DNA of 64,000 nt from Somniosus microcephalus (lineage: Eukaryota): positions 44,020,001 through 44,084,000 of the forward strand of contig CM126206.1 in NCBI GenBank assembly GCA_052327205.1, in the 5' to 3' direction. The position numbers and the translations under genes were made by a program. Below, piece by piece: positions 30,022 to 59,058 of the stretch. Position 1 is the first letter of the stretch. The number at the start of each line of letters is the position of its first letter. A model generated the notes under the pieces. That model had not been told where the DNA came from and did not search any database. It saw only the letters and a list, made by a program, of their open reading frames with translations.

Positions 30022-30231
30022 CAATGTAGGATCCAGGTAGCTATGGGTTGTAGACCAAGACTGAGGAGTAAGAAGGCTATAAAGTGGAAACTGCTGTTGG
30101 GGGCTGTATATCGGAGGCACATAAAATGATGTGTACCTCTGTTGTTGAGTGTATAGGTTCATATCAAGAGGTCTATAACCATTCTTTGGTAGAAAAGTAT
30201 TGATAGCCATTGGCTTTGCTTTTATCCTTGC
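30022..30231 (-). CDS. LARP4B: LARP4B exon (ARIKAKPMAINTFLPKNGYRPLDMNLY...HSYLDPTL)
   Basis: ttgcag|GCA acceptor, TTG|GTAAGT donor; 210 nt. Confidence 0.97.
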
Positions 30232-30331
30232 CTGCAAAAAAGAAAGTTCCAGGTTCAAGTTAATACTTGACACTGTACCGAACAGAAGAATCAAGGAACT
30301 AAATCAGTGTTAAATAGTATCCAACTTTTAC

Positions 30332-30385
30332 CTTTATAGGCTTTCCCTGGAAGGTTTTTACTTCTTCTCGAAGATATCTGTAAGC
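30332..30385 (-). CDS. LARP4B: LARP4B RRM exon (AYRYLREEVKTFQGKPIK)
   Basis: gccag|GCT acceptor, AAG|GTAAAA donor; 54 nt. Confidence 0.96.
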
Positions 30386-30933
30386 CTGGCCAATGTAAAT
30401 GACAAGTTAGAACACATGGTCACTCATGTTACAACACTACACATGTGGTGCATGATCAATAAACTACAGAAATGCACATTAGTTTTCAGTTAAAATGCCA
30501 GCTCTGGTGTGGTCGCAGGAATGCTACTCCGCTTGAATTATTAAGTTTGAAGTCAGCAGATTGATGATTAGAATTGCAAAGTTAGCATTACAGTCACAAA
30601 CAATTCAAGATAAACCACTCGTAATGGAAGCAGTTTTTTGTGCACTGGAAAACACTATCTGCTGAGAACACTGCTATCAAGTGTTCAATTCCTGTTCAGC
30701 AGATAAGGGTTGTATGCAGAACCACTGCCCTTCAAATACATTCAACCCAGATTTGAGAGTGTACATCATGTAAAAAATGTCCTTTAAAAGTTTTGCCATA
30801 TTTAAAAGTCTCGTTACTTAATTTTTGTTCTTTTTTTCTTTAAGCAGAACTTTTAACTAAAGGAGAAAACTGGCTCGGAGGTAAACAAAATACATTCACA
30901 ATAGAAACAAGCTCAGCGTACTCGACTGAAAAC

Positions 30934-30953
30934 AGTCAGTCAGTCAGTCAGTC
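30934..30953. repeat. (CAGT)n tetranucleotide microsatellite
   Basis: About five CAGT units seen directly. Confidence 0.85.
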
Positions 30954-31589
30954 ATTCAACTAGGCTACTCCAATGATCATGTCTTCTCGGGCATCAACTC
31001 AGTTTCTACATGCCGATTTAATAAACCCATAACAGGTCTCCACCGATCCCACATTATACATACTTATTTGAATATGAATATTCAAAATTGAAACTTCAGA
31101 AAATTAAACCAAGAAGTTATTCCTGGAAAACCCCTTATAAATGGTGGAGATGGTATGGGAAGAGCAACTATTATCACATTTGCAGGTAGTTTATTAAAGT
31201 TGAACAGTTCCAAGAATTGTTAATACACATCTTAATTTGCAAAAGGCTTATAATTATTGCTACAGCCTTTAGGACAAAGTGGGACATTTAATTCTTTGGT
31301 AATTTTCTTTTTTGTACTTAACGTTAAGGGCATTAATCCCATGAAATTGAAGACTTTCCATTTCAAGCACCCAGTGTCAACATCAAGCACAGTAGTTGGA
31401 GGCAGAGCAAAGTGCCCTTCATTCTGTCTCCGTGCCTCAGCACCAAGTGCGCCCTCTACTGCACCAGTGTATTATTACCCCCTTCCAATTTTTTGTATCA
31501 GCCATTCTGGGGCTTCTCTAAATTAGCAGTAGCTTTGTGCTGCAAACTCAGCCAACTGAATAAAAACCCCGCAAATGTATTTTTTTAAA

Positions 31590-32600
31590 ATTTGTTTATG
31601 GGATGTGGGCGTCGCTGGCACGGTCAGCATTTATTGCCCATCCCTAATTGCCCTCGAGAAGGTGGTGGTGAGCCGCCTTCTTGAACTGCTGCAGTCCATG
31701 TGGTGATGGTACTCCCAGTGCTGTTAGGTAGGGCGTTCCAGGATTTTGACCCAGCAATGAAGGATCGGCGATATACTTCTAAGTCAAAATGGTGTGTGAC
31801 TTGGAGGTGTTGGTGTTCCTGAGCGCCTGCTGTCCTTGTCCTTCTAGGTGGAAGAGGTTGCGGGTTTGGGAGGTGCTGCCGAAGAAGCCTAGGTGAGTTG
31901 CTGCAGTGCATCTTCTAGCTGGTACACACTGCAGTCACGGTACGCCGGTGGTGGAGGGAGTGAATGTTTAAGGTGGTGGATGGGGTGCCAATCAAGCGGC
32001 TGCTTTGTCCTGGATGGTGTCAAGCTTCGAGTGTTGCTGGAGCTGCACTCATCCAGGCAAGTGGAGAGTATTCCATCACACTCCTGACTTGTGCCTTGTA
32101 GATGGTGGAATGGCTTTGGGGAGTCAGGAGGCGAGACACTCGCCACAGAATACCCAGCGCCTCTGACCTGCTCTTGTTGCCACAGTATTTATGTGGCTGG
32201 TCCAGTTAAGTTTCTGGCCAATGGTGACCCCCAGGATGTTGATGGTGGGGGATTCGGTGATGGTAATGCCGTTGAATGTCAAGGGGCGGTGGTTAGAATC
32301 TCGCTTGTTGGAGATAGCCATTGCCTGGCACTTGTGTGGCACGAATGTTACCTGCCACTTATCAGCCCAAGCCTGAACGTCGTCTAGGTCTTACTGCATG
32401 CGGGCATGGACTGCTTCATTATCTGAGGCATTGTGAATGACACTGAACACTGTAGTTATCAGCAAACATCTACATTTCTGACCTTATGCTGGAGGGAAGG
32501 TCATTGATGAAGCAACTGAAGATGGTTGGGCCTAGGACACTGCCCTGAGGAACTCCTGCAGCGATGTCCTGGGGCTGTGATGATTGACCTTCAACCACCA
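31590..32600 (-). mobile_element. CR1/L2-group (Crack/Daphne-like) LINE 3' fragment
   Basis: KCQAMAISNKRDSNHRPLTFNGITITESPTINILGVTIGQKLNWTSHINTVATRAGQR is a post-RT region; homologous copy at 63258-63710. Confidence 0.82.
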
Positions 32601-32734
32601 CAGTGTATTCTACATACAATCCTTACAAACACAGGTGACTTTCATGTCATCAATCTGGACCCAAGTCCCAGAAGCAAAAGGCTGTGTGACGCAGTGCACC
32701 ACCCAGTTTAAAAGAATCTTATAAGACAAACTAA

Positions 32735-33194
32735 CAAAGAAAAGACTTGCATTTATATAGCACCTTTCACAACCATCAGATGTCCCAAAGCGCTTAACAG
32801 CCAATGAAGTGCTTTTGAAGTGTAGTCACTGTAGGAAATGCAGCAGCCAATTTGCACACAGCAAGCTCTCACAAACAGCAATGTGATAATGACCAGATAA
32901 TCTTTTTCAGTGATGTTGATTGAGGGATAAATATTGGCTAGGACACCAGGGATAACTCCCCTGCTCCTCTTTGAAGTAGTGCCATAGGATCTTTTTCGAT
33001 CACCTGAGGGGGTGGACAGGGTCTCAGTTTAACATCTCATCTGAAAGACAGCATCTCCGACAATGCAGCACTCCCTCAGTACTGCTCTGGAGTGTCAGCC
33101 TAGATTTATGTGCTCAAGTCTCTGGAGTGGGACTTGAACCCACACCCTTCTGACAGAGGCGAAGAGTGCTACCCACTGAGCCACAGCTGACACT
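32735..33194 (-). mobile_element. Full-length SacSINE1-like DeuSINE
   Basis: tRNA head with A/B boxes (GTGGCTCAGTGG...GGTTCAAGTCCC), Deu domain and AAGTCTTT tail. Confidence 0.9.
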
Positions 33195-33329
33195 CAACAG
33201 AACTTAGTGCTGTACTGAAAGCTTGTGCAGAAGTACAACTGATTGAAGCACAAAGTATTTAAATTGCTAAAGATTTCATGTATACATTGTCTCAATTTCC
33301 AAAATCTTGGTAAGAATAATAGGCTTTAC

Positions 33330-33440
33330 CTGTTGTGCATCAGCCTCTGATTCAAAGGTGATAAACCAGTTGTCATTGTAGGCAAACTCACAACTCATGA
33401 ACTTCGGGAAATTTTCTCCTCTGAAGAGTGCTTCTACCTC
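33330..33440 (-). CDS. LARP4B: LARP4B RRM exon ([37 protein letters not shown])
   Basis: cccag|GAG acceptor, CAG|GTAAAG donor; 111 nt, phase 0 to 0. Confidence 0.97.
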
Positions 33441-33504
33441 CTGGGAAGAAAATAAGCTTGATATTATGCCAAATACATATTCCATGCAGGCAGGTTCTAC
33501 CTAA

Positions 33505-33832
33505 TACAGGAAACTTTCGATTTACCGGCACCTAAATAACCGGAAATCTCAGTTAACCGGCAAAATTCAGGAGTAGATTTTACTTCATATTGTATTTGCC
33601 TTCCTCCGTCTGTTGCTGTGCAATGGTGTGGCTGCAGCTGTTGCTAAGCTACAGAGACGCTTGAAACTTGTGGCCATTGTTCTACACTTGTTGCTAAGCA
33701 ACAGGGTTTGTTGCTTTATACGGAACCGTCAGCTCTCCCTATCTTTTACTATAGCATTCGGTTATCCGGAATTTTTGATGAACCGGCACCACGTCGGTCC
33801 CGTCCGTGCCGGATAAAAAAAAGTTTCCTGTA
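33505..33832. mobile_element. Tc1/mariner-type MITE (orientation B), 65 nt from an exon acceptor
   Basis: TACAGGAAACTTTC...AAAGTTTCCTGTA, 328 bp. Confidence 0.9.
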
Positions 33833-34377
33833 ATGTCATCCAAGTAGAAGACAGTTCCTGTGCAATTGCTCTTAAAATATACAACTCCCTTTAATCCCAA
33901 CCACTCAAGAAGCACATACATAGCCTTCACTAAGCACTACCCCACACAATCGCTGCCCTGGCACAGATTTCCTTCTATAATTTATGCCCTGGAGCACTAA
34001 CTACCTCAACAGTCAAGCATTTTACATGGTTACATGAGTGGAGTATTCCACAACATGAGAGTCGACAGGTTGTCACAGCAGTAGTTATAACAAGCAGCAA
34101 AACCACTGGTATTTTTTTTGTACGATTATCCTTTTGGGTCAACTAGTTCCAAAACAATTTTGGACCGAAAGTCCAAATTCTTTGAGGCTGGTCTAAGGGA
34201 CTGTTCTGTGGTTTAAGATCATAGTGACTTACCCAATACCTGGCAAGAAAGGGAAATGTACCTTTCAAATTAAGAAAAAAAACTGTAACCTAAAAAGTGA
34301 GCATCCTCCATCTCCCACACAAGAATTTTACTCTACAGATTAGCTACAAGAGTTTTGTTCAAATTAGACCAACATGT

Positions 34378-35190
34378 TATAAGAACATAAGAAATAGGAG
34401 CAGGAGTAGGCCATTTGAGCCTGCTCTGCCATTCAATAAGATCATGGCTGATTATCTACCTCAACTCCACTTTTCTGCACTATCCCCATATCCCTTGATT
34501 CCCTTAATATCCAAAAATTTATCTATCTCTGTCTTGAATATACTCAACGACTGATCCGCCACAGCCCTCTGGGGTAGAAAATTCCAAAGATTCACCACCC
34601 TGAGTGAAGAAATTCCTCCTCATCTCAGTCCTAAATAGTCAACCCCTTATTCTGAGACTGCTCCCTGGTTCTAGACCCCCCCCAAGCCAGGGGAAACATC
34701 CCCCCTGCATAGAGGAGAGGGTGCAGAGGAGATTTACCAGAACAGTCCCAGGGATGAGAGACTTCAGTTATGTGGAGAAGCTGGGGTTGTACTCCTTAGA
34801 GCAGAGAAGGGCAAGAGGAGTATTTGACAGAGGTGTTCAAAATCAAAAGGGGTTTTGAGAAGAGTAAATAAGGCGAAACTGTTTCCAGTGGCATGAGGGT
34901 CGGTAACCAGAGGACAGATTTAAGATAACTGGCGACAGAAACTGGCGGAGGAGCTGAAAGCAAGTTTCATTTTTGGACTCATGGGGAATCAAGGGATCGG
35001 GCAGGAAAGTGGAGTTGAGGTGGAAGATGAGCAGTGATCTTATTGAATGGCGGAGCAGGCCTGAGGGGCTATATGGTCTACTACTGCTCCTAATTCTTAT
35101 GTTATGAGAGGAATTGTTCTTAATGCAGCAAGTTGTGATCTGGAACACGCTGCCTGAAAGGGCGGTGGAAGCAGATTCAATAGTAACTTC
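34378..35190. mobile_element. Cluster of opposite-orientation CR1 3' ends
   Basis: Minus 3' end 34378-34700 (AAGAACATAAGAAATAGGAGCAGG...) joined to plus fragments (ERVQRRFTRTVPGMRDFSYVEKLGLYSLEQRR) and a plus 3' UTR at 34975-35105. Confidence 0.85.
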
Positions 35191-35699
35191 TAAAAGTCTA
35201 CTGGGGATACCAACTGCATTACTTGAATATCTGGAACAAGCTAATCGATCACTATTTATCCCATAACAAGTGGAATTGCCTCTTTCCACTTTGACTAAAA
35301 TGTTAAGGAATATTCACCAGCCTGAAGGCACCATTTATTCTCTCCATCCCCAACAGGACAAATTTGCCCAGATGCAATTTATTTCTTTAAAAATCCGCAT
35401 GTAGATTCGTACTCCAGTAATTGCGTACATTTAGCAGTGATCTGGATTTCTCTCACGGATCTTGTAGTCAGCACTATGGAGTTGGAGCTTGATCTAGTGC
35501 ATCAGCTCAGTTTCCTGTGTATTGGCTATGGTACTAATGTTCCTGAAGATCTCGCTTACAAGAACTATGCTGAACCTGCTTGCCAGTCATTATACCCCAT
35601 CTTGCACTAACTTCTGGATCCCATTTGATAGTTTTTAAATTCAACTGAAAAATGTCATTATTTTAAATTAGAGCGTGTCTGTTTTTGCTCAATTCTTAC

Positions 35700-35803
35700 C
35701 TCAATGGGTGTCGACTCTGGTACTTCTCGTAGAATTACAATGCAGCGGTTTTGATTTGGCCTGACTTTCTCTCCTTTCTCATCCACTTGGACCAAAGGCA
35801 ATG
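35700..35803 (-). CDS. LARP4B: LARP4B LaM-RRM junction exon ([35 protein letters not shown])
   Basis: ttttag|CA acceptor, GAG|GTAAGA donor; 104 nt; 88-nt intron to the preceding exon. Confidence 0.97.
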
Positions 35804-35891
35804 CTAAAATGAATTACAGGATATTTTCATATTTTCAGCAACAATTCTCTTCAAAATACTGCTTTTTACATTTTATGCAACACATACTTAC

Positions 35892-36028
35892 ATCTCAAAA
35901 CTTCAATAATCAGGTCCACATCTGTGCTCAGTTTCTTCACATGGTCAAGGTTTGCTACAGTCAGTATTGGCACATACTGGTCACTATCCATTTGGGAGAC
36001 CAGGTACATATCAGTGGCCAGATTTTCT
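35892..36028 (-). CDS. LARP4B: LARP4B La motif exon (ENLATDMYLVSQMDSDQYVPILTVANLDHVKKLSTDVDLIIEVLR)
   Basis: ttgcag|A acceptor, T|GTAAGT donor; 137 nt. Near-identical to human LaM. Confidence 0.97.
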
Positions 36029-36609
36029 CTGCAAAAAAAAAAATTACACTCAATGTGAACAACCAGAATTTTAATTAGATTTGCACCCATTTCCAAGCTC
36101 AATGTTAATGAAGTATTCACATTTTAAGGAATTGTTCAAGTTTTGAGTGCCTAAATGCCTACTTAATATGTTCCAATAAGCCAACAGATTGACTTTTCAA
36201 ATTAGAGAAACACATAGTTCCACTGACTGGATGATAGTTAAAGTTGTAACTTTAACTATAGTATTCAGCCATACAGACCAGAAGTTTGCAGGATCAATTC
36301 CTGGTTAGCTCAACTGAACCAAGTTAGAAATTGGGGCACAGTTAGCCTCAGTGTCCTTAGGAGGATAAAGAACATAAGCAAACATTTCTAATCATTGTCC
36401 AGTGACCACTGATGGAACATGTGGAATTACGGCAAGAGGTGGGCTGGGTTTGGCTTTGCACCATAGAATGTACTGATGCCCATGGTCGGCATTATGGGAC
36501 CTGAACACTAAGCAGCTGGATCTTCAGTACAGTACATGGTGCTTCCTGTGTTTTGGCTGTGGTGCTAATGTTTGCTAGCATGCTGCATTTCTGAAGATCT
36601 TGGAATCTT

Positions 36610-37000
36610 AGTCAATCATAATGGCACAGGAGGCCATTTGGCCCATCAAGCCCATACCAGCTCTCTGTAGAGCAATCCAGTCAGTCCCATTCCCCTGCTC
36701 TATCCCCGTAGCCCTGCAAGTTTATTTCCCTCAAGTGCCTATCCAGTCTCCCTTTGAAAACATTGAGCGTCTCCGCTTCCATCACTTCCGTCGGCAGCGA
36801 GTTCCAGGTCCTCACCACTCGCTGCGCAAAAAAGTTTTTCCTCACATCCCCCCCTGTATCTCTTGCCCAAAACCTTAAATCTGTGTCCCCTAGTCTTTGT
36901 ACCATCAACTAGTGGGAACAGCCTTTCCCCGTCTAGCCTATCCAAACCCACCATAATCTTGTACACCTCTATCAAATCAAACCTCAACCGCCTTTGCTCT
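36610..37000 (-). mobile_element. CR1 LINE 3' end
   Basis: DLIEVYKIMVGLDRLDGERLFPL...TRGHRFKV; [15 protein letters not shown]. Confidence 0.88.
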
Positions 37001-37576
37001 AATGAATCTTACTCAGAAGAACTTTGTCCCCACCCCCTCCCCCACCTCTCCAACTTGCACTAACTTCTGGATCTCATTTCTTTGATAGCTTTTCAAGATC
37101 TATAAGCTTACAGCACCTTCTAGTGAGGAGAGAAAAGTTAAAGGGGCAGTGTTTTTAAAGAGATGACTCATTTGGTTCAGGTATACCAATTCCTCTATTT
37201 GTCCACAATCAATGTTGGATGCCTAAGGTATGCAGACACCCAACACCAAGTTGATTTCTTGCAGTTTAGAATTTCATTAATTTGTTTGTTTATTTTGTTT
37301 AGAATTTTGTCGGCAGAATTTGTGCAGTACTTTTGAGATACTGAAAGCATGTTCTGTTTTTGGAAGCCGGGAGGAGGGAGAAGGGATATTCATTTTCAAT
37401 TTGGTAAGAAAACCATTTTGGTCAAAAAACTTTAAAGAGTGTATATTATCTACAGCATTAATTATCAAGTCCAAATGGTTAAACTACATTGTTAAGCACT
37501 TAAATCTGCAATAGAGATTAAATAAAATTAATCTCAACATGTATAAACTAAGAAAAACCTACAACTAAGGACTCAC

Positions 37577-37667
37577 CGAGACAAACAGAACTCCAGTGTC
37601 TTTTTCAGCAACTCTCGAAGGTCTTCTTGACCAACTGTCTGCTGTTCCAACAGAGACTGATCTCCTC
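37577..37667 (-). CDS. LARP4B: LARP4B exon, start of La motif (…GQEDLRELLKKTLEFCLSR)
   Basis: tttgtag|GA acceptor, TCG|GTGAGT donor; 91 nt, phase 1 to 2. LKKTLEFCLSR is a LARP4B La-motif signature. Confidence 0.96.
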
Positions 37668-41474: not shown

Positions 41475-41610
41475 CTTCTGGGCAAGTATCAGGAGCCCCC
41501 AATTGTTCTTCCCAAGGTTCACAGGCATTGCTCGCAGCAGCATCCAGATTTAGCACGTGATTTGCCCATACTTTGGCATTAGGATTCAGCTCTGAAACCT
41601 TGGCCGACTC
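41475..41610 (-). CDS. LARP4B: LARP4B exon carrying the PAM2w motif (ESAKVSELNPNAKVWANHVLNLDAA...CPE)
   Basis: ELNPNAKVW is the LARP4-family PAM2w motif. Acceptor ctttggtag|GAG, donor GAAG|GTATGG; 136 nt, phase 0 to 1. Confidence 0.95.
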
Positions 41611-44209: not shown

Positions 44210-45300
44210 CTGGTTTGCTCAGCTTACCCACCACTACACTGGAGTACTGCATTCAGTTTTGGAAACAAAAGCTCTGGAAATATATATCGGCCTTGGAAGG
44301 GGTACTGCGCAGATTCATCAGAATGATACCAGGGCTTAAACGGTTGAATTATGAAGATAGATTGCATGAACTTGGCTTGTATTCCCTCGGGTTTAGACGG
44401 TTGAGGGGGCGATCTAATCAAGCTATTTAAAATAATGGTGCAGGTCAGCTGTGATCCAATTGAATGGAACAGGCTGGAGGAGCTGAATGGCCTACACTGG
44501 TTCCTATATTCCCATCTCCTGCTCCATTATTGGAGACCAACTTGTCAAACACAACTACTGCACTTCTGGGGGAATGTTGATAAAACCTCGTCACCTTCCT
44601 TCACAGCTCATGAAAACTTAGCTCAGTCTTCAAAATCTCGAACCATATCCATCACTGCTCAGCTCTTCCTCCCCTCCTTGTATTCTTCGACTCGAGTCAC
44701 TATATCATTGCAAGTTGATTTATAAATACCTCATTATACTTTACACGCTTTGCTGGTGCATTCCAAAACTAATCTCTGCCCTGCTCCTTTTTCCTGATTC
44801 AAACATTTATCCAATGTTCCCTAAAAGATGCAATGGTCTTGGCCTCAACCACTCCCTGTGGTAAAATATTCCATGCTCCAGCAACCCACAACGTAAATAC
44901 ATTTCTCACTAAGTGCCAACTTTAAATTTGATGACCCCTCATGACTGAATCCCAAAGGGACGTGGTCTTTCCAAATTCATCCCATAAAGCCCTTCATAAT
45001 TTTAAACAATCTGACAAATATCTTGGCTTTCTCTGTTGCAGTGGAAATAGTCTCAGTATCTCAAGTCTCTCCTCCTAACTATAATTTGTCATCCCTGGCA
45101 TCATCCTGGTGAATCTACGCTGTACAGCTTTCATGTCCTTTCTGTAATGGAGTGTCCAAACTTGCACACTACTGTGACCTCACCGATGTTTTGTACAGGT
45201 TTATCATTACATCTTCACCCTTTTACTCTATGCCCCTAATTATGAATCCCAAAATGCTGCTGGGCCTTTATGGCTTCATCTACCTGCACTTGCAGGGAAT
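44210..45300. mobile_element. Degraded CR1 fragments (plus 44210-44510; minus 44720-45300)
   Basis: LEYCIQFW...ALEGVLRRFIRMIPGLKRLNYEDRLHELGLYSL. Confidence 0.8.
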
Positions 45301-46003
45301 TTTTTTGAACTGCCTTCTATGTATTTGATGGCACTCCAGTTACTCGGATTATGCCACAAGCGAGACGGTTATGAAAAGACAAGCAAAGCTAGAATCCGCA
45401 TATATCTTAAAACAACAACGTTGGAGGAGAAAGAGAGGGGTAGCCAAATCATTAAAGGGGACATCAGTGTCAGTCCTTCCGCTGGCTAAGAACAGAGAAA
45501 AGGAAGCATGGTTAGACAGGTTTTAAACAGGCGTCTGCAGTTTGCTCCCTTGCTGTCTGTGAAATAAAGTAGCTTAATGATTCGTATCTGGCCTCAGCTC
45601 ACCAAGTGTTTCTCAATCTGCCTTCAAAGTGCACATGGGTGCACATGCAAAATGCACTATATCCAGGTAGATCCCGACAAATCCTATTGTTACACGCCAT
45701 GGTATAATGAGATATTGGCAAAACACTCAGGCTACTTGCATCGGTGAGCAGCATCACCATATCCAGCGAATATCGAGACCCCCAAAACAGGCACCCAAGG
45801 TGACGAGATAATCAGGGCCAGAGAATCTGAAACTGTTAAAAATTGGCAAACGAGCAGAAGAAACGAGGTCAGAAAATGAGAGGTTGGGCAGGAAAATGAA
45901 GAAAATCCTCCAGCTTGCAACCAAGGTTTCTAAAAGGAACAGATGAAGGATAATGTGAAGCCGAGGACCAAATTTAGGTTGAGGATTCAAGAATCAATGC
46001 AAT

Positions 46004-46338
46004 TACAGGAAACTTTGATATCCGGCACTGACTGGACCGAGCTGGTGCCGTAGCATCAAAAGTGCCGGACATACCAGAGTTAATGTTTAAACATACAGAA
46101 CCGAGAAGCTCCGTGTGAATCAACAAACCCTGTTGCTTAGCAACAGCTTCAAAACAGTCGGCTGCAGCTGCAAGTGTCTGTAGCTGAAGCGGTTGCTATA
46201 GCTACAGGCCTTGCAGTGCTTGACTGGGAAAAAGAAAGCAACGAGAACTAAAAAAAAAATAGAAAATGGCTCCTGATTTTTGCCGTTAGGTCGAGTATTC
46301 CGGACATATAACCTCCGGATAAACCAAAGTTTCCTGTA
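46004..46338. mobile_element. Tc1/mariner-type MITE (orientation A)
   Basis: TACAGGAAACTTTG...CAAAGTTTCCTGTA, 335 bp. Confidence 0.9.
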
Positions 46339-46916
46339 TGTATAATATATGCTGGAACTGCACAAAATGGCAAGAACAGTTTTGAGGATTCAATTTAATG
46401 AGTTGGAGCAGAAGGTGCTAATATGCGCTGACTCCATTGTTGCAAGTGGAAATCTTGGACAGTTTTCTTTGCCTTCCCTAGTCCCTGAACATGAAGGCCA
46501 AGTTCAGCAATTCAATGCTTCACTAACCAACATCAATAGACTCCGTACAAACTAGTGGTGAAATCCAAGTCTGAGAAAGCAAATAAAATGGCAGTGATGA
46601 AGTCTCAACTCCAACTCGAGAAGTTTAGAGCCAAAAATCTAAAACAAGGTTTTTCCAAAAAGTTGGCTGCGCTTTGAGACTGAAGGAGGAATATGGAAAA
46701 AATAGCGAACTGATTTTAAAAATATAAAAATACAAAAAAGGAAACTGTAAATGCTTGAATTCTGAAACAGAAAACATGGAAATACACAGGTGTCAGTATG
46801 TATCTGTAAACAGAAAACACTAGTTGGCTTTTGAGTGTGCATTCTTCATTAAAGTTTTTTTTATGCACAGGAAATACTTAAATTTAAAATGCCACTGTAT
46901 ACAAAGTAGATCATTT

Positions 46917-48137
46917 CATAGAAACATAGAAGATAGGAGGAGTAGGCCATTCGGCCCCTTGAGCCTGCTCCGCCATTCAATGCGATCATGGCTGATCATC
47001 CAAATTCAGTACCCTGTCCCTGCCTTCTCCCCATATCCCTTGATCCCCTTAGCCTTAAGAAATATATCCAACTCCCTCCTTCGTGAATATATTTAATGAA
47101 CTGGCCACAACTGTCTTCTGTTGTAGAGAATTCCACAGGTACACCGCTCTCTGGGTGAAAAAATTCCTCATCCCTGTCCTAAATGGCTTACCCCTTATCT
47201 CCAGACTGTGACCCCTGGTTCTGGACTCCCCCGCCATCGCGAACGCCCTTCCGGCATCTAGTCTGTCTAGTCCTGTTAGAATTGTATATGTTTCAATGAG
47301 ATCCCCTCTCATTCTTCGAAACTCTAGCGAATATAAGCCCAATTGACCCAATCTCTCCTCATAAGTCATTCCTGCCATCCCAGGTATCAGTCTGGTGAAT
47401 CTTCGCTGCACTCTCTCCATGGCAAGAACATCCTTCCTCAGATAAGGCAACCAAAACTGCACATAATACGCAAGGTGTGGTCTCACCAAGGCCCTGTACA
47501 ACTGCAGCAACACATCCATGTTCCTCTACTTGAATCCTCTCGCTATGAAGGCCAGCATACCATTTGCCTTCTTAACCGCCTGCTGCACCTGCATGCTTAC
47601 CTTCAGCGACTGAAGCGCAAGGACACCCAGGTCTCGTTGCACTCCCCCTTCGCCCAATCTATTGCCACTCAGATAATAATCTGCCTTCCTGTTTTTGCCA
47701 CCAAAGTGGAGAACCTCGCATTTATCCACATTATACTGCATCTGCCCAATCACCCAACCTGTCCAAATCCAAATCTGCTATTACATCTTTTATAATGGAC
47801 TCTAGCATTTTCCCCACTACCGATGTCAGGCTTACCAGTCGAAAATTCCCTGCTTTTTCTCTACCACCTTTTTTAAATAGTGGGGTTACATTAGCTACCC
47901 TCCAATCCATGGGAACTGTTCCAGAGTCTATAGAATTTTGGAAGATGACCAGCAATGCATCTACTATTTCTAGGGGCCACTTCCTTAAGTACCCTAGGAT
48001 GTAGATTATCAGGCCCTGGGGGATTTATCGGCCTTCAATCCCGTCAATTTCCTTAACACCATTTCCCTACAAATATGGATTTCATTCAGTTCCTCCCTCT
48101 CATTAGAGCTTTATGTTCCCCGACATCTCTGGGAGAT
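46917..48137 (-). mobile_element. CR1/HER1 LINE fragment (copy 2 of the young subfamily), internally deleted RT
   Basis: VPMDWRVANVTPLFKKGGREKAGNFRLVSLTSVVGKMLESII; YNVDKCEVLHFGGKN; LYRALVRPHL; same 3' UTR as 535-1143. Confidence 0.93.
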
Positions 48138-48172
48138 TTCAATTAAAGAAAAAGTCCAAAATTTAAATGTTT

Positions 48173-48494
48173 TGTAGGAATTGCCAAATTCCTATCTAAG
48201 AACTGAGGTCGACTCAGGCGATCAAACAAACAAGTTTTAATGCAGAACTAACGAGTTTAAGCAGTTTGTCGAGATCGATACAGGAGAACCACGAAAACAG
48301 GTCTTTGCTGGTCGGAGGCTCCACGAGGACTGCCAGGGCGGTCCCGTGGATGGCGTCATGACGTTTCTCCCGCGCTTGGGTGGTCACATGATTAGCGGCA
48401 TGTCGTCATCGCGTTTACCCGCGCTTTACCGCAGTCTCAAAGGAACGCGCCCCGTGCATGCAAACAGTATGTACAAACACAGAAATCACTAACA
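48173..48494 (-). mobile_element. Probable solo LTR
   Basis: TG...CA termini (minus strand reads TGTTAGTG...TCCTACA), 322 bp, CpG-rich, ATTAAA plus GU-rich tract near the 3' end. TSD not convincing. Confidence 0.5.
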
Positions 48495-49010
48495 GACTGG
48501 TACAGGCTTAGGTTGGAGTCAAACCTGGTTAAAGGGAATGATGTACAGTTGCTCAAAGTCCCTCAGTGGCTCTGCCACACTTTCATAAATAAATGCTGTT
48601 CACTCCTAAAAAATATCAAAGTTGAAGAATTTTAATGAGAATGTTGGATTGTTGTTTCATTGAAAGGAAATGACAATGAAGTTTAAGACAGTGTTTAAGA
48701 TGGAAGACGAAATACCATCCTCATTGCTTCTGAACATAAACTGAATGAGCTATGTTTAATTTGTAGGGTATGAGCGCAGTGTGGTTATGGTATGGACTAC
48801 CAACCCAGAGGTCACAAGTTCAAATCCCACTTTTGAATTAAATAAATCCAGGGGCAGGCACCAGAAAAATAGCCATGAAAGCTGCCTCATCTGGCCCATA
48901 CGTGACTCCAAAAAAAATTTAAATGGCAAATTTGCTGACATGTACAAAAGTTACACTTTTAACAGAGCCAAAAGGTGGGATTAAATCGGTGTCATTTGAA
49001 AGATACTCAC

Positions 49011-52000
49011 AGTCTGGTCACATCTGTTGAGCCAACTCCAAGAATCAATGGTTTCGGACACAGAAAGCCGGTATGGATACATCCCAGTAAGGCTTTTGGG
49101 GGCAACATTCTTTGATGCAACCGACTGGACTATATCATTTTGTTGTGGTCCGATCTCTTTGATAATTCCAGAGAAGTTGGTGTTCCATAAGTAACCCATA
49201 CGGCTGTCTACATTTATCTTCAGCTGTTCAGAAAATATATTCTCAGCTACATCTTCAAACATTGCGTCAATTTCTGGATTGATAGTCCATGGTGGCCAGA
49301 CGTCATGTTCTAAATTGTGATCTACTTTAGGTTCATCTTCAGACTCTCTCAAAATGACTGCCATCACATCCACACATCTCTCATTGCTTCTGCACAGCAC
49401 ATCAGATGAGCTTTTCTCTTTTTCATCACCACTGCTGAAGATTCCAGCTATGACATGAGGTATTTCATATGAAGGAGTTGATGCATATCGATCTATCTGA
49501 CTAGGATCTACAAGACTGTGAACAGTCATTTCACATGATTCTGTTGATGTGTATAATTTAACAGCCTCCGCATCTGTTGAAGCACTAGTAAAAGGAACAC
49601 TCTTTTCTAGTGCTGGGGCATTAGCTTGTGAACACTTCCCCTCCTTTGTTTCAATTTCAAAGGTGGGTGGACTCTTCACAGACTTATCCAATAACGGTGT
49701 GGTTTTACAGCTCGTGCCGAACATGACTTGCGGAACTTCATTTTGCACCCAGCACAAAACGGGATTGTAGTACTCATTTGTAATCCAGTCAGCATCAAAT
49801 GTTTGTTTCAAGTCTTCATCAGTCTTTTCATTACAACATTCTGAGAGATGCCCATTTACAAAGCTAGTTCTGTTCTCGATCTGTGGATGGATATTTTGCA
49901 GAGTCTCTGAACCTCCAAGTGCTGCATTTGGAGCTGATGAAATTTGCCTATGTGCAGAAAGATTATTTTGAATCTGAAGGATCTGTTCAGTTATTCCATT
50001 CAATAAACTTTCTTCATCTTTCAGACTGTTGGTATATTGTTTTAGGCAGATGTCTGCATTGTTTTCTACAGTATCAGAGAAATTATGGGTGGCAAAATCC
50101 ATTTCACTGCTTACTTCAGTATTGACTGCTAAAAAAGCAGCAGAATCTTGGTTTTGTTCACTATACCTTGTCTCACCTTTTTCCTGTTGGTTTTTCATAT
50201 TTGTTTCTGTAGCTGGTCCTTTCTGAACAGAATCCCAGATATCATCATTAGTAGGCAAAATACTTCTGATTTCATCCAACTCTGTTAAAGCAACACTGGC
50301 ACTGCAGCCAATGTTAAATGGCTCAGACAGACATGTATCATCATACATTTCAACAACTGCGTCGTGTTCAGCTGAAAGGTGAAGTCTTGAATTTTCCAAT
50401 ATAGTTTCTTCAGAGACATAGGGCACCCTCAATTTGAGGTCAGCTTGCAAAATGTCATCAATGCACACTGATGAAAGTTTACCACTTTGGTCACCTCTGC
50501 TTCTTTGATTAAGTATCTGCTCCTCAATGGTAGAATTACTGATATAAGCTACATCATCTAACTTGGCACAAGAACTGGATTTCAAACTATTCCCTTCAGC
50601 TTTCATATGCTCAAGTGGTTTTTCAACAGAAGGTACAGATAAGGACTTTACATCCAAGTATTTATCTTCCAGAGGTTCCACAAACACATTTACATGACTT
50701 AACTTAGTAGCTTGATCTTGTTGCAGTTTGTCAGTCTCACTCTTCTGATTGGTAAACTCTGTTTCCAGCAAATTAGATGGCACACTAACTAGATGGCTAA
50801 GAATTAGCTCACCTTCAAGACAACAGTCTGACATTGATTCAGAGTTAGAATTAGGTATTTTTTCTACTGAAGAATTAACAGGCCATAAATAATTTAACTT
50901 TGGCAGCACGGCTTGCCTGATTACAGAGGAGTCGGAGATAATATTTTGGCCATTTCTTACCCCATCAAGCTGCTGCACAGCTGTGTTTGGATACATCATA
51001 CTTTTGGATTCCAACATATTGAGCTTGCATTGTTGATATTCATTAATTCCTGTACCTTCAAAATGAGTGCAATGTTTTGCGGGGGACTCTGTCTCTATCT
51101 GCTTTGCTGCACACAGATGGTAGCATTTGGCATGGTTGTAAATATTTGCATATTTTGAAGCACAAGTGTCTGAACTAATGAAGTCATTTACCTCAGTCAA
51201 GTTCTCAGAAAGTGAAGATTTTACAAGGCTGTGTTTCTTTCCACATTTAGGATGAGTATCGAGACTTTCTGCCTCATCTTTGGTCATTTCTGCAGATAAA
51301 AGTGCTGCATTTGATTCTGGCAGCAGGAATATAGCAGCTTGTGCCTCATCAGGGTATACTTCAGTGGAAAAACCATGCTGCTTCACAATGTCTACTTCTA
51401 CGGTCATCGCTGGTGCGACTTGAACTACTTCCTGCTGCTCAGACACAGCTGCTCTACTTAAAGGACAGTGTCTTGAAAACTCCCCAGCAGTATCAACAGA
51501 CCATGTTAGGCTTTGCTTTCTATCAGCTGCAACAGCTGAACAGTATAGATCTGAAGCAATTTGATGAGGGAAAACAGGTGCCCCGTCATCATTGTCTACA
51601 TCCTCCAGATCTATTGTACAGATACTATAAAAATCATTGGTTCGAGATTGAATATAGATTTCAGCAGACACGTTACTGGTATCCAAGAAATGTTCTTGTA
51701 TATTATGCTGTGTTGTAATACATTGAACTCCATCAGTCTTGCTATTTTTAGCATAAACCTCTGCCACGAGTGAGTGACACTTAAGTTCTTGCTGTTGAGA
51801 GTGGGAATTCTCAAAAGTCATCTGGCAACTTGTCAAATTTGTGCCATTTAAGGAAGCCTCTTCCTTGGGGTGCGAGAGCACAATCTTGTCCTCTGGATGA
51901 TTACAGTCTAATAGAAACGGCGCACCTTCAGTAACATTTTCAGTTCTCTGCCTCCGAACAGAGTTTTCAGCCATTTTAACAGGACTCCCTGACTTTTGGC

Positions 52001-52466
52001 GTTTTCTTTCCAGATCTTCCTTTCCTTTAACATCCAAGATTTTTTTCCTTGATAGACCAATCGTCTCCCACAGACTCCTTGTTTGTGCATTTGACAATGA
52101 AGGATCATCTGTCAGGAAGTCGTCACTAGCTTTCCTTCTAAGATTTGCAGCTTGCTGCAGGCACATTTGACTATGGTAGAAGGGTTTCTTTGTTAGCAAG
52201 AACCAGATTACGTGCCTGCTGTTCTTCAACCATCCTTGGTTAGTATCCACACTTGCATTCACAATTTGTGCACGCTTCAGCGTGCCATATTCGTGAGCCT
52301 GTTCATCCAAGTCCCCATTTTCAGTCACTTCTTTAAGTATTGACCCTGGGTTCTGGATCCAGTTTTCAGTATCTGTTTCACTTCTTACATTCCTTAACAA
52401 ACTTGTTTTTTCGGTGACATTGTTGGCCAGCAAAGGACTTCTCTCTTTACTGAAGCAACAACCCAT
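49011..52466 (-). CDS. LARP4B: Giant alternative N-terminal coding exon of LARP4B (1152 aa, acylation signal MGCCFSK, acidic/Ser-rich, probably disordered)
   Basis: 3486-nt stop-free ORF (48981-52466). Kozak aagcATGG with in-frame TAG TAA 15-10 nt upstream. Consensus donor ACT|GTGAGT at 49011/49010 is phase 0, and the next LARP4B exon (41610) starts in phase 0. Splicing is inferred, not observed. Confidence 0.78.
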
Positions 52467-53419
52467 GCTTCGCAGTTACTACAACAAACCGGCACGCTGC
52501 TAAAGCTCAGTGCTCTGAAACAAACTTCCAACTGGAGCAGAGGCTAGCCAACACCCACGTACCAAAAATAGCACCTTTGACGCTGTTAAAAATTCATGTG
52601 CTACTGCCAGTCAAATCTTTACAGCACAGCCTGGTTAACTTATTCCTAAATTAATAACACCGTATCAAATTTCCACTTTATGCCATCAGGTTTTGCAATG
52701 GAGGGGTTTTCTGATTTACAATAAACCTGTATTCCTCATTAAGCCTGCATTCAGCAACTAATTACAATCTTAAAGCAGCATAATACTGGGATTCCAGATT
52801 TTAATTTTGGCTGTTCAGAGTTGCTGGGTAGTAACCGGTTAGAATTTCTGCCATTAGTGGATAAGAACATAAGAAATGGGAGCAGGAGTCAGCCATTTGG
52901 CCCTTCAAGCCTTCAAGATCATGGCTGATCTACTGCAACTCCACGTTCCGTACTATCCCCATATCCCTTGGCTCCCTTAGTATACAAAAATCTATGGATC
53001 TGTCTTGAATATACTCAACAACATTTCTGGAACTTAATTATGAAGATCGGCCATTGCACCTTAAAACCTCTCCACTCAAATTTCAGCATCACAGCATGGT
53101 ATTCTAGTGTAATTCAAAATATTTATTGTTCCTAAAAGATAGTACAGACAACAAATATTTGAACTTTACAACACAAATGTTGTATATTTTTCTACTTCAG
53201 TGTCAGCTGCAGCTCAGTGGGTAGCACTCTCGCCCCAGTCAGAAGGTTTTGGGGTCAAGTCCCATTCCAGAGACTTGAGAACAAAAATCTAGGCTGACAC
53301 TCCAGTGCGGTACTGAGGGAGTGCTGCACTGTGGGAGGTGTCAGCTTTCGGATGAGATGTTAAACCGAGGCCCCATCTGCTCTCAGGTGGACGTAAAAGA
53401 TCCCATGGCCACTATTAAA

Positions 53420-54525
53420 ACAACTTGTATTTATACAAGCGCCGCTAACGTAGTAAAACATCCCACGGCGCTGCACAGGAGTATTTTAAGACAAAATTTG
53501 ACGCCGAGCCACATATGGATAAATTAGGGCAGATGACCAAAAGCTTGGTCAAAGAGGCAGGTTTTAAGAAGCGTCTTAAAGGAGGAAAGAGGTAGCGAGG
53601 CGGAGAGGTTTAGGCAGGGAACTCCAGAGCTTAGGGCCTAGGCAACAGAAAGCACGGCCACCAAAGGTTGAGCAATTATAATCAGGGATCCTCAAGAGGG
53701 CAGAATTAGAGGAGCACAGATATCTTGGGGGTTGTGGGGCTGGAGGAGATTACAGAGATAGGAAGGGGCGAGGCCATGGAGAGATTTGAAAACAAAGATG
53801 AGAATTTTGAAATCGAGGCACTGCTTAACCGGGAGCCAATGTAGGTTGGCGAGCACAGGGGAAATGCGCAAATGGGACTTCGTGCGAGTTAGAACACGAG
53901 CAGCCAAGTTTTGGATGACCTCAAGTTTACGTAGGGTAGAATGTGGGAGGTTGGCCACGGGTGCATTGGAATAGTCAAGTCTAGAGGTAACAAAGGCATG
54001 GATGAGGGTTTCAGCGGTGGATGAGCTGAGGCAGGGGCGGAGACAGGCGATGTAACGGAAGTGGAAGTAGGCAGTCTTTGTTATGCTGCAGATGTGTGGT
54101 CAGAAGCTCATTTCAGGGTCAAATATGACACCAAGGTCGCAAACAGTGTGGTTCAGCCTCAGACAGACATTAGGGGGAGGGATGGAGTCAGTGGCTAGGG
54201 AACAGATTTTGCAGCGGGGTCAAAAAAAATTGCTTCTGTCTTCCCAATATTTAATTGGAGAAAAGTTTTGCTGATCCAGAACTGGATGTCGGACAAGCAG
54301 TCTGACAATTTAGGCACCGTGGAGAGGTTGAGAGAAGAGGTAGTGAGTTAGAGCTGGGTTTCGTCAGCGTACATGTGAAAACACTGTTTTCAGATGATGT
54401 CACCAAGGGGCAGCATGAAGATGAGAAATAGGAGGGGGCAAAGGATCGATCCTTGGGGGACATCAGAGGTAACGATGCAGGAGCAGGAAGAGAAGCCGTT
54501 GCAGGTGATTCTCTGGTTTACGATT
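53420..54525 (-). mobile_element. L2 LINE 3' fragment
   Basis: LRKLEVIQNLAARVLTRTK...ISPVLANLHWLPVKQCLDFKILIFVFKSLHGLAPSYL is a typical L2 ORF2 C-terminus. Confidence 0.9.
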
Positions 54526-54593
54526 CTCTGATTTCGAAGAGTATGGGCGTTATTCCCAGTGTCCTGGCCAATATTTATCCCTCAAATCAACAT

Positions 54594-54920
54594 TACAGGA
54601 AACTTTGGTTTATCCAGAGGGTAACTGTCCGGAATGCTCGAGCCACCGGCAAAAATCAGGAGCCGTTTCGTAAGGTTTTTTTTCTTTTCGTTGCTTTTTT
54701 TCCCCCCACCAGTCAGGCTCTGCAAGGTCTCACTGAAGCGGTTGCTAAGCTACAGAGACGCTTGCAAGGTACGGCCGACTGTTTAGAAGCAGGGTTTGTT
54801 GCCAGATACGGAGCTCAAAATCTCCGTATGTTTCAACATTAGCGCTGGTTTGTCTGGCAGTTTTGATGGGACGGCAACAGCTCAGTCCCGTCGGTGCCGG
54901 ATAGCACAAAGTTTCCTGTA
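54594..54920. mobile_element. Tc1/mariner-type MITE (orientation B) nested in a DeuSINE
   Basis: TACAGGAAACTTTG...CAAAGTTTCCTGTA, 327 bp. Confidence 0.9.
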
Positions 54921-55849
54921 CTAAACAAAACTGATTATCTGGTCATTATCACACTGCTGTTTGTGGGATCTTGCTGTGCATAAATTAGCTGGCGTGTTGC
55001 TTACATTACAACAGCGATTACACTTCAAAAGTACACCATTAGATCCTGAGGCAGTGAAAGGTGCTATATAAATGCAAGTCTTGCTTGTTTTTAAGCAAGT
55101 TGCTTTATGGAATTTGAAGTTGGCTCCTGCGGCAAATGCCACTCTTGTTGCCCTAGTAGGTGCAATGGTTGCCAGTTTACATTCTTGAGCTTATTTTCAG
55201 GTCACAGCTGTTGGCTAACTGGTAAGTTTTCAACTCACTGAATGAAAATATTGCACCATTAACGAAAAATCGGATATACAAGCTATTCATGCAACGTTTG
55301 ACATCCAAATATAGGCAACAGATGAAGTGAGTGAGGCCTATACCTCCAATTACATAGCAATCTGAAAAGCTTTTTTTAAACTTAATATAAAGAATCTAAT
55401 TGAAGGATTTCCTGTGGTCCTGCACTACAACCTAGAATGTCTACATGTATAGTCCTAGTACATACTAGGATTAAAACCGTGGCTGGAAGTAGAGGCAATT
55501 TAATTGAACAAATAACTCGCACAATATATAGAGATTACTGATCAAACAAAAACAGCTTTTGGGAAAACAGGGAATAACAGATAAAAGCCTTCAATGTCTA
55601 CAGGTGTATTTTTGGGGGGTTTGCAGGAGAGGGGGAAGTGCTAGTGTTAAATAATTTTCACTTAGTTTTAGGTCAGAAACTCTGGTAGAGTGGTACAGGT
55701 TCTGAGCTTTATCCTACCCAGGAGTAGGAGACAGTGCGTGGCACTGTGTATGTCGTAACATTCTCTCTTCCTTCCTTCCTTCTCCTCTCTTCCCCCCCCC
55801 CCCCCCCCCCCCGAGGTATGCATAGAGGATGCATTAGTATTTGAACCAA

Positions 55850-56805
55850 GCATCAGCTTAGCTCAATGGCAGAGCTCTCACCCGAGTCAGGCAGTCATAT
55901 GTTCAAGCTCATTCCAGGCACTGAGGGGGTGCTGTTGTGCTGTATTGCAGTCTTTCGGAGGAGTCATTACATTGAAGACCCACCTGTTTGTTCTAGGTGG
56001 GCGTAAAACACCCTTTGGCAGTATTCAAAGAGCACGGGAGTTCTATGTCTTGGCCAACATTTATCCCACAACCAACACAAATCAAAACGAATCAACGGTC
56101 ATTTTGCTCATTGCCATTTTAGAAGTCAGTGTACACAAATTGGCTGCCACATTTGCTTACATAACAGTGGCTAAACTTCAAATAGGAGTCCTTGGCTATG
56201 AAGCCTGAGGCATTCCAAGCACATGAAAGTTTTTATACAAGTGCAAGTTCAAGACTCTAGCAGGTAGACATTCTATCTATACTTGTAATTGCAGTTACAA
56301 TGAAAATGGATCAATCTGCTAGCATCCAGGGCATAAATATATCAAGAAAAAAAATTGCATTTATATAGCACCTTTCGCAATCTCAGGATGCTCCAAAGCG
56401 CTTTACCGCCAATTGAAGTGTAGTCACTATTGCAATGTTGGAAACGCGGCAACCAATTTGTGCACAGCAAGAGCCCACAAACAGCAATGTTATAATGACC
56501 AGATAATCTGTTTTAGTGGCGTTGGTTGAGGGATAAACGTTGGCCAGGACACTGGGGATAACCCCCTGCTTTTCTTCGAAATAGTGCCTTGGGATCTTTT
56601 ACCGCTACCGGAGAGGGCAAACATTTCATCCGAAATATTATTTTTTTTCCCTGAAGATGACCACGTTGGAATGTTCTTTGGAATAGAAAAGATGCGATTT
56701 GCAGTGAGAAAAAGACTTGCATTTATATAGCGCCTTTCACAACCACTGGACGTCTCAGTGCTTTACAGCCAGTGAAGTACTTTGAGTGTAGCCACTGTTG
56801 TAACT
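55850..56805. mobile_element. Cluster of DeuSINE copies (plus 55850-56250; minus 56345-56640; tail 56705-56805)
   Basis: Deu-domain and tail words shared with 32735-33194. Confidence 0.78.
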
Positions 56806-57322
56806 GTTGATTTGCAGGAAGCAGTTATAACAGACATTGCACCATCAAAAGCAGAATTTAAATCCAGCAGGAACAAATGGCAGTGGCTTCTGGCAGCTGA
56901 TGAGGGCCCTAGTTTCAGACAGTTGTGCCATTAATTTTGGCTGGATTTAAATCCAGGCCCTGAAGGTGAAGGATCCAGTGTTCTAACTCACTGCACCACC
57001 CATCCTTTTCTAGGTAACTTTCCAACATGGCCTTTTTCACAAAAGCTGCATTTCGAGATGCCAAGCCTACAGCACAAGTGCAACAACTATTCATCACTAA
57101 TTGGCCAAGCAGAACCTCAAGGATAACTAGTCCGAGAAATTGCTTTTGTTTTGATGCACTCTAAGGTGCAATGAACTCCTGATTGTGGCACATAATGTAC
57201 AAGCTTCACCTTCCATCTAACCCACTGCATGCCAGGCCAGAATGCTCACTGACAGATACTGGGTCAAAAATGCAAAGAAAAATATTCCTATTCACCTGTA
57301 TAGTTATCTTCACCAGCACGTT

Positions 57323-58697
57323 ATAGAAACATAGAAGATAGGAGCAGGCCATTCGGCCCTTTGAGCCCGCTCCACCATTTAATGAGATCATGGCTGATCA
57401 TCCAAATTCAGTACCCTGTCCCTGCCTTCTCCCCATATCCCTTGATCCCTTTAGCCTTAAATATATCTAACTCCTTCTTGAATATATTTAATGAATTGGC
57501 CTCAACTGCCTTCTGTGGTAGAGAATTCCACAGGTTCACCACTCTCTGGGTGAAGAAATTCCTCATCTCTGTCCTAAATGGCTTATCCCTTATCCGTAGA
57601 CTGTGACCCCTGGTTCTGGACTCCCCGGCCATCAGGAACATCCTTCCTGCATTTAGTCTGTCTAGTCCTGTTAGAATTTTATAAGTTTCAATGAGATCCC
57701 CTCTCATTCTTCTAAACTCCAGCGAGTATAAGCCTAATCGACCCAATCTCTCCTCATACATCATTCTTGCCATCCCAGGTATCAGTCTGGTGAATCTTCG
57801 CTGCACTCCCTCCATGGCAAGAACATCCTCTCTCAGGTAAGGTGACCAAAATTGCACAATACTCAAGGTGTGGTCTCACCTAGGCCCTGTACAACTGCAG
57901 CAAGACATCCTTGTTCCTGTACTCGAACCCTCTTGCTACGAAGGCCAACATACCATTTGCCTTCTTAACCGCCTGCTGCACCTGCATGCTTACCTTCAGC
58001 AACTGGTGCACAAGGACACACAAGTCTCATTGCACTTCCCCTTTTCCCAATCTATTGCCGTTCAGATAATAATCTGCCTTCCTGTTTTTGCCACCAAAGT
58101 GGATAACCTCGCATTTATCCACCTTATATACTGCATCTGCCCAAATCATACTGGAGTTTCTCGGCATCCTCCTCACAGCACACACGCCCACCCAGCTTTG
58201 TGTCGTCTGCAAACTTGGATATTACATCTAGTTCCCTCATCTAGATCATTAATATACAGTGAAAGCTGGGGTCCTAGGCCCGATCCCTGCGGTACCCCAC
58301 TAGTCACTGCCTGCCACTCAGAAAAAGACCCATTTATTCCAACTCTGCTTCCTGTCTGCCAACCAGTTCTCTACCCAAGTCAGTACCTTGCCCCCAATCC
58401 CATGTGCCTTAACTTTACACGCTAATCTCTTATGCGGGACCTTAAAGTCCAAATACACCACATCCGTTGGTTCTCCCTGATCTATTTTTACCAGTTACAT
58501 CCTCAAAAAATTCCAGTAGATTAGTCAAGCACGATTTACCTTTTGTAAATCCATGTTGACTTTGTCCGATCCTGTCACTGTTTTCCAAGTGCTCTGCTAT
58601 TAAATCCTTTATAATGGATTCTAGCATTTTCCCCACTACCGATGTCAGGCTTACCGGTCTATAATTCCGTTTTCTCTCTACCACCTTTTTGAATAGT
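57323..58697 (-). mobile_element. CR1/HER1 LINE fragment (copy 3 of the young subfamily)
   Basis: NYRPVSLTSVVGKMLESIIKD...QHGFTKGKSCLTNLLEFFEDVT; same 3' UTR as copies 1 and 2. Confidence 0.93.
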
Positions 58698-58977: not shown

Positions 58978-59058
58978 CAGAGGGGAACTGTCCACAACTT
59001 CTTGCACTTGCTGCACCTGCGGTTCAGCCACAACTTTAGTGTCCTGGTCAGAAGTCAT
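58978..59058 (-). CDS. LARP4B: LARP4B canonical first coding exon (MTSDQDTKVVAEPQVQQVQEVVDSSPL, 27 aa); exon acceptor at 59111
   Basis: Matches the human LARP4B N-terminus MTSDQDAKVVAEPQ as I recall it. Acceptor ttcacag|AT at 59112/59111; donor CTG|GTAAGT at 58978/58977, phase 0, 81 coding nt. Confidence 0.93.

Follow-up and report, generated by a model that had tools for sequence, protein, structure and literature searches.

How mRNAs and ribosomes become attached to endosomes and lysosomes in vertebrates is an open question, and few linkers are known. ANXA11, FERRY and AKAP1-LARP4 link mRNPs or ribosomes to the organelle surface, attachment being by calcium/lipid binding, through a Rab5 effector complex, or via a separate transmembrane anchor. 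In Ustilago maydis, Upa1 has been described as combining a membrane-binding end and a PAM2 for the poly(A)-binding protein in one protein (PMC9249222). Short membrane addresses have been characterised separately. Residues 1-39 of LAMTOR1, which hold an acidic dileucine and both acylation sites, have been reported to bring fusions to the lysosome surface (PMC7039192), and a similar N-terminal layout has been described in fungi for Ego1 and for VTA of N. crassa (PMC6028147). Dileucines are read by AP-2, AP-3 and in some cases AP-1, leading to direct lysosomal sorting or to surface uptake, and in mucolipin-1 [DE]xxxL[LI] has been described as a plain AP-2 internalisation signal (PMC5297682). The peptide MGCCFSKT, the engineered MARCKS tag of mT/mG mice, has been reported to be myristoylated and palmitoylated and by itself to go to the plasma membrane (bioRxiv 2020.09.18.303743, PMC9183799). 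LARP4B has been described with a main form of 738 aa, 2 isoforms being given (PMC4693254); its PAM2w binds the PABPC1 MLLE (PMC7356810), it binds RACK1 via two short motifs (PMC13293227), and in cancer lines the endogenous protein is reported to locate to mitochondria and to nuclei, isoforms not being distinguished (PMC10963253).

The window considered here is a stretch of 64,000 nucleotides from the shark Somniosus microcephalus (C5:44,020,001-44,084,000). LARP4B was mapped in it by tblastn, with the canonical first coding exon, the PAM2w exon, the La and RRM exons and later exons down to 9209 all on the same strand, and the core exon 30231-30022 is 94-99% identical to the named LARP4B of sharks, rays and chimaera. 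The intron between the canonical first coding exon and the PAM2w exon contains a giant alternative 5' exon, whose ORF (52466..48981, minus strand) runs for 1161 aa up to the first stop and begins MGCCFSKERSPLLANNVTEKTSLL. In positions of the window, the features of the locus are:

58978..59058, minus strand: canonical first coding exon of LARP4B, coding part, 27 codons (tblastn; donor CTG/GTAAGT, phase 0)
49011..52466, minus strand: giant alternative 5' exon of LARP4B, coding part, 1152 codons (ORF; phase-0 donor; homology to chimaera and coelacanth long isoforms; sense RNA in run X8)
52446..52466, minus strand: start codon and putative N-myristoylation/S-palmitoylation signal M1-G2-C3-C4-F5-S6-K7 (sequence; conservation in 70 distinct N-termini; identity to the mT/mG tag)
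52428..52445, minus strand: first dileucine-like motif, ERSPLL, residues 8-13 (strict in 1 of 70 N-termini; not conserved)
52395..52412, minus strand: conserved acidic dileucine, EKTSLL, residues 19-24 (strict in 68 of 70)
51609..51632, minus strand: island FYSICxxD, residues 279-286 (F, Y, S, I, C and D at 0.92-1.0, clade-weighted; also in Xenopus)
49473..49508, minus strand: island DxxQxDxYxxxP, residues 987-998 (clade-weighted conservation; decays in several placental mammals)
49032..49190, minus strand: tryptophan motifs LW (1093-1094) and WxW (1143-1145), just before the PAM2w splice (0.98-1.0, clade-weighted)
41475..41610, minus strand: PAM2w exon (PABP MLLE-binding motif), common to both forms (tblastn; phase-0 acceptor)
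30022..37667, minus strand: exons of the La motif, the RRM and the conserved region behind them (tblastn; La family match at the locus)

A preliminary description had singled out 52466-52395 as the N-terminus of a LARP4B isoform and had given no strand. This observation is confirmed, as these letters are exactly the first 24 codons of the giant ORF, on the minus strand, and the assignment to LARP4B is borne out by the PAM2w, La motif and RRM exons of the LARP4B orthologue downstream on the same strand. The giant ORF has a single match in the 6.4-Gb genome. Its ATG carries A at -3 and G at +4, and no earlier start is available in frame, since an in-frame TAA stands four codons upstream. After 49011 follows the donor ACT/GTGAGT in phase 0, in agreement with the canonical donor and the PAM2w acceptor, both likewise phase 0; the spliced long isoform would measure ~1,860 aa in the shark (1152 + ~711), with the giant exon in place of the 27 canonical N-terminal residues. 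The exon product is acidic (net charge -72), with hydrophobicity nowhere at transmembrane level and no credible domain in a Pfam scan, and in four long isoforms La was the only domain that Pfam found.

The giant exon opens predicted LARP4B isoforms of ~1,500-2,100 aa in chimaera, coelacanth, frogs, reptiles, birds and mammals, and annotated long isoforms joined to the core are available for chimaera (XP_007899383.2, 1933 aa), coelacanth, frogs (Xenopus laevis XP_018122646.1, 2129 aa), turtles, birds, monotremes, marsupials and placentals, the last including mouse (XP_011242555.1, 1723 aa, also listed from Logan assemblies of public runs) and human (A0A8I5KVU2, 1735 aa, TrEMBL). The sequence of the long isoform is already known, as entries in RefSeq and TrEMBL that are all predicted or unreviewed. 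A word-index search with the whole giant ORF gave no match, and a full HMMER scan with the shark exon gave three relatives, from coelacanth (E 8e-25), crocodile and anole, all starting MGCCFS; further long isoforms came from cluster look-ups and from a search with manatee residues 1-260 (76 matches). Among the 120 listed matches (of 978) to the core exon, 17 are at least 900 aa long, 11 of which begin MGCC and 6 otherwise; the dileucine is strict in 9 of the 11, the remaining 2 being frogs with LF. MGxC lies within 40 residues of the start in 153 of the 172 collected sequences of at least 900 aa. Of the 19 without it, 16 were checked individually: 15 map to the interior of an MGCC orthologue and one gives no alignment, yet has an MGCC sibling; the other 3 share a checked start. 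With MGCC and one E-x-x-x-L-L conserved across jawed vertebrates, this is an ancient alternative exon. Shark and ray entries show short LARP4B only among the listed members (15 of 17 and 14 of 14), so the giant exon seems to be unannotated in these groups; the listed caecilian entries are also short forms only, and no long teleost form turned up, in searches that were insensitive to one.

Gene models vary around this plan. In bat, seal and one further model (P0201, P0204, P0205, P0230, P0262) there is an in-frame ATG further upstream whose use would mask Gly2, and the codons directly before the MGCC start look conserved in these. The elephant model starts inside the giant exon, by which the anchor would be lost if the model is real. 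Several models (P0056, P0062, P0334, P0339, P0337, P0108, P0289) contain only the 3' end of the exon, via internal acceptors, or skip its middle; the canonical form may therefore also acquire the WxW segment, and the arm may differ in length. Elsewhere in the genome, two other La-motif loci are presumably LARP1-like, judging by the La sequence, and core exons of the LARP4 paralogue lie at C33:39701230-39703330 (39.70 Mb). No giant-exon homologue was found in 100 kb of the LARP4 locus, ~96 kb of it upstream, a repetitive region with gaps in which the PAM2w exon was not located. In the ESM Atlas, shark residues 1-40 gave nothing at or above 0.9 and human residues 1-50 no usable match.

At its N-terminus the exon product combines Gly2 after the initiator, a small residue at position 6 and Cys within residues 3-5, the arrangement expected for dual acylation, and the mT/mG membrane tag opens with the same heptapeptide, MGCCFSK. 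Conservation was surveyed over 70 distinct first-30-mers, a set in which G2 and C4 are fixed by the selection pattern and which, being partly seeded with the N-terminus itself, is biased to anchor keepers and to mammals. In this set C3 and F/Y5 occur in 70/70, K7 in 65/70 and S6 in 63/70, S6 being missing in ruminants and two other mammals. Myristoylation of Gly2 and palmitoylation of Cys3 and Cys4 are predicted for long LARP4B with a high degree of confidence. As the mT/mG tag is acylated and targets the plasma membrane, the anchor is very likely functional, but no lysosomal address alone; the tag's plasma-membrane destination means that the location of the long isoform hinges on the dileucine. 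In four frog genera (P0095, P0103, P0424, P0428), residues 8-21 show an extra Cys at residue 10 plus LF for LL, possibly a linked change of anchor and sorting signal.

Both ERSPLL and EKTSLL match [DE]xxxL[LI], a pattern present 3 times in the 1152-aa exon product, 2 of them within the first 24 residues. Among 20,000 composition-matched draws, 2.1% placed at least one motif between residues 8 and 24 and 0.04% placed two there; the test being post hoc, conservation deserves more weight. In 68 of the 70 distinct N-termini the second dileucine is strict, with its glutamate at residues 13-19, and both frog types carry LF. The first is strict only in this shark, the sole shark/ray N-terminus in the set; chimaera has ERGPVV at this place and bony vertebrates are three residues shorter here. 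In a conservation profile of 26 aligned sequences with seven clades weighted equally, E19 and L23 score 1.0 and L24 0.86 against an exon mean of 0.36, and 36 of the 1152 positions reach at least 0.85, including 1-8, E19, T21, L23 and L24 and none of 9-18. The two tandem dileucines of the preliminary description thus stand in so far as both fit the consensus in the shark, and fall as a conserved design. What is kept from shark to human is G2/C3/C4 and one ExxxLL, which agrees with the conservation on which that description had made its reading depend. EKTSLL lies in putatively unstructured sequence (AlphaFold2 pLDDT ~39). Behind the dileucine, at residues ~33-45 (P0290, P0120, P0121), coelacanth and amniotes have an ISKTLSSL-type sequence with the hydrophobic spacing of an amphipathic helix, which is absent from shark and frogs.

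Most of the remaining exon would form the long flexible arm that had been proposed, a proposal that fits its 1152 residues, modelled as disordered. With an 18-sequence alignment, AlphaFold2 gave a mean pLDDT of 33.9, and 1145 of the 1152 residues are below 50, values consistent with disorder, although the shallow alignment also lowers confidence. Within the arm, the islands FYSICxxD, DxxQxDxYxxxP, LW and WxW are likely candidates for partner-binding motifs, W1143 and W1145 being invariant in the 18-sequence alignment. FFAT and LIR readings of FYSICxxD were set aside for their poor fit to the consensus patterns. A GWW motif has been reported to be required for endosome binding by the fungal Upa2 (PMC9249222), and the likeness of WxW to it is a lead only.

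Transcription was assessed by aligning four RNA/contig runs to 41300-57300: raw RNA reads of X8 (31% read), X7 (24% read), and contigs of X1 and X2, which are presumed RNA, have a different species label and are of low depth. In X8, the seven bins of the giant exon have depths of 0.7-8.0 with first mates on the plus strand and of 0-0.04 on the minus strand, a pattern that in most stranded libraries corresponds to minus-strand, that is sense, RNA; depth is 0-1.0 in four low intron bins and 2.2 in the bin with the 136-nt PAM2w exon. Six of the seven giant-exon bins are empty in X7, so that sense cover of the exon is found in one (X8) of the two stranded runs. Contigs of X1 and X2 cover the giant exon patchily. 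One X1 contig aligns from 49010 and leaves 29 letters unplaced; as G is the first letter of both the intron and the PAM2w exon, this break fits a contig spliced 30 nt into the PAM2w exon. An X2 contig extends 21 nt into the intron past the giant-exon donor. Another X2 contig, solely on the PAM2w exon, has a depth of 36 and fits the canonical form; since giant-exon contigs have depths of 2-6, the long form looks minor in X2. At the other end, contigs continue unbroken for 200-420 nt 5' of the ATG, which fits a first exon or pre-mRNA. The joint 49011-41610 was absent among the 15 joints listed of 385, tables that were dominated by repeats, and no RNA holder for the giant exon was found among the record listings. 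Two LINE fragments in LARP4B introns (46938-47860 and 57340-58679), reverse-transcriptase-like, 87-94% alike and CR1-like, attract most RNA reads.

The giant exon is therefore real, conserved and transcribed, with an acylation signal and one conserved dileucine. The explanation that we favour, and consider somewhat probable, is that a lipid-anchored, adaptor-sorted LARP4B tethers PABP/RACK1-bound mRNPs to endolysosomal membranes. The alternative 5' exon would swap 27 N-terminal residues for ~1,000-1,400 mostly disordered ones. Removal of Met1, myristoylation of Gly2 and palmitoylation of Cys3/Cys4 would then, with high confidence, yield a peripheral membrane protein. With moderate confidence, AP-1/2/3 would recognise the single conserved dileucine, 9-15 residues past the anchor, which would thereby sort the isoform to late endosomes or lysosomes, on their cytosolic side, in the manner of LAMTOR1. 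With lower confidence, the intact PAM2w, La module and RACK1-binding region, carried distally on the arm, might keep PABP-bound, ribosome-engaged mRNAs close to this membrane for local translation, stabilisation or co-transport. Exon choice would toggle LARP4B between soluble and organelle-bound pools. Taken by itself, an endolysosomal home of long LARP4B appears probable, while RNA tethering as its job is a tentative suggestion. For the proximity to mTORC1 raised in the preliminary description, no evidence was found. Counted against the favoured explanation are the plasma-membrane destination of the anchor alone, the AP-2 option, LF in frogs, the losses of S6 and the gaps in X7, as well as mitochondrial and nuclear LARP4B, the non-MGCC models, the intron read-through in X2 and the joint absent from the list.

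The lipid-anchored isoform might instead reside at the plasma membrane, recycling endosomes or the TGN, with the dileucine as an AP-2/AP-1 cycling signal and the mRNPs serving cortical or Golgi-associated translation, which we judge unlikely. The conserved motif has no proline before LL, where the LAMTOR1 of this genome has one, and presumably resembles the dileucine of HIV Nef, both of which count in favour of such a location. So do the surface destination of MGCCFSKT when alone (bioRxiv 2020.09.18.303743, PMC9183799) and the palmitoyl-proximal dileucine of mucolipin-1, which drives AP-2 uptake; endolysosomes are nevertheless the end point of most proteins with such motifs listed in the same source (PMC5297682), and in amniotes the anchor-to-motif spacing and the acidic linker are close to those of LAMTOR1. 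Identical signals would also serve disposal or export, with LARP4B and its mRNPs taken into multivesicular bodies or lysosomes, to be degraded there or loaded into vesicles, or with PABP/RACK1-binding capacity sequestered from the cytosol. Canonical LARP4B stabilises mRNA, and a membrane pool could conceivably act oppositely. Disposal or export nonetheless appears quite improbable, given that an arm of ~900-1,400 residues with conserved islands suits cytosolic reach over packaging and that the like address of LAMTOR1 is reported to hold that protein on the cytosolic face (PMC7039192).

More improbable again is a main product made of the giant exon alone, through an intronic stop or internal splicing, which would act as a membrane scaffold via its islands and without the RNA-binding core. 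It would explain the free-standing models called 'uncharacterized' in crocodile, anole and gelada, the human model of 552 aa that ends with no PAM2w, and the X2 contig entering the intron, but the donor a few codons past WxW is kept in all clades while read-through tails differ, and many models, together with the Logan-listed mouse protein, join the core. Finally, all database entries are predicted or unreviewed and the initial whole-ORF homology search was empty, as might be expected if the ORF and its motifs were chance or an annotation artefact; an open frame of ~1,000 codons whose start and motif islands recur from shark through to human, and sense transcription of the exon, make this very improbable, and conservation largely refutes it.

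In a survey of mostly open-access papers, no description of a long or lipidated LARP4B was found, and a lipid-anchored LARP was not found described, which gives the isoform interest even if its compartment is not the lysosome; supplementary proteomics tables may contain peptides of it. The LARP4B literature examined uses the 738-aa form, and knockdown or antibody results may mix two pools. A conserved isoform that joins a membrane address to a PABP/RACK1/RNA-binding module, present in mouse and human, makes the question of attachment directly testable. In its fullest form, which we put forward as possible and no more strongly, jawed vertebrates would have a self-contained lysosome/late-endosome mRNP tether, an acylated, adaptor-sorted LARP4B holding PABP-/RACK1-bound translating mRNAs on a 1,000-residue leash. 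If true, it would provide RNA hitch-hiking and lysosome-proximal translation with a linker that has so far been missing, switched by one exon, and the tether could be removed with canonical LARP4B untouched.

When compared with known systems, the N-terminus resembles that of LAMTOR1. In this genome, the first exon of LAMTOR1 on C10 supplies 14 residues, starting MGCCYSS (L005:9114), and EGKPLL lies on the following exon (L004 near 9304), so that, if the exons join in phase 0, the glutamate of the motif is residue 18, against 19 in shark long LARP4B and 13-19 in LARP4B orthologues. Gag/pol retroelement-like open frames occur in LAMTOR1 intron 1 (L004) and at loci L014 and L029. As a layout, the LAMTOR1-like address proposed initially holds against this genome's own LAMTOR1, with G2, C3/C4 and an acidic dileucine within 25 residues; the address of the LAMTOR1, Ego1 and VTA type has, like long LARP4B, an MGCC start, S at 6, a linker and one [DE]xxxLL ending near residue 21-24. 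The LAMTOR domain (PF15454) had no Pfam match in the giant exon at E up to 1, and because a PDB sequence search with residues 1-30 gave 0 matches at E up to 10, there is no detectable homology to LAMTOR1 by sequence; the likeness is read as convergent, not as family membership. The payloads differ, being Ragulator for LAMTOR1 and, for long LARP4B, a predicted RNA-binding module ~1,100 residues away. The mT/mG tag has the identical heptapeptide and is artificial, without a dileucine and directed to the plasma membrane. Canonical LARP4B (738 aa) is a product of the same gene and has PAM2w, the La motif, the RRM and downstream exons in common with the long isoform, to which the putative anchor, sorting motif and disordered arm are confined. 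ANXA11, FERRY and AKAP1-LARP4 are unlike long LARP4B in that they are not known to use a lipidated splice isoform of the RNA-binding protein. The nearest mechanistic parallel is Upa1, which also combines a membrane end with a PAM2-type motif. Upa1 uses a FYVE domain on PI3P endosomes, a domain that Pfam did not find in four long isoforms, and binds the RNA transporter Rrm4, whereas long LARP4B would rely on predicted acylation and a dileucine for its anchor and on RNA binding of its own.
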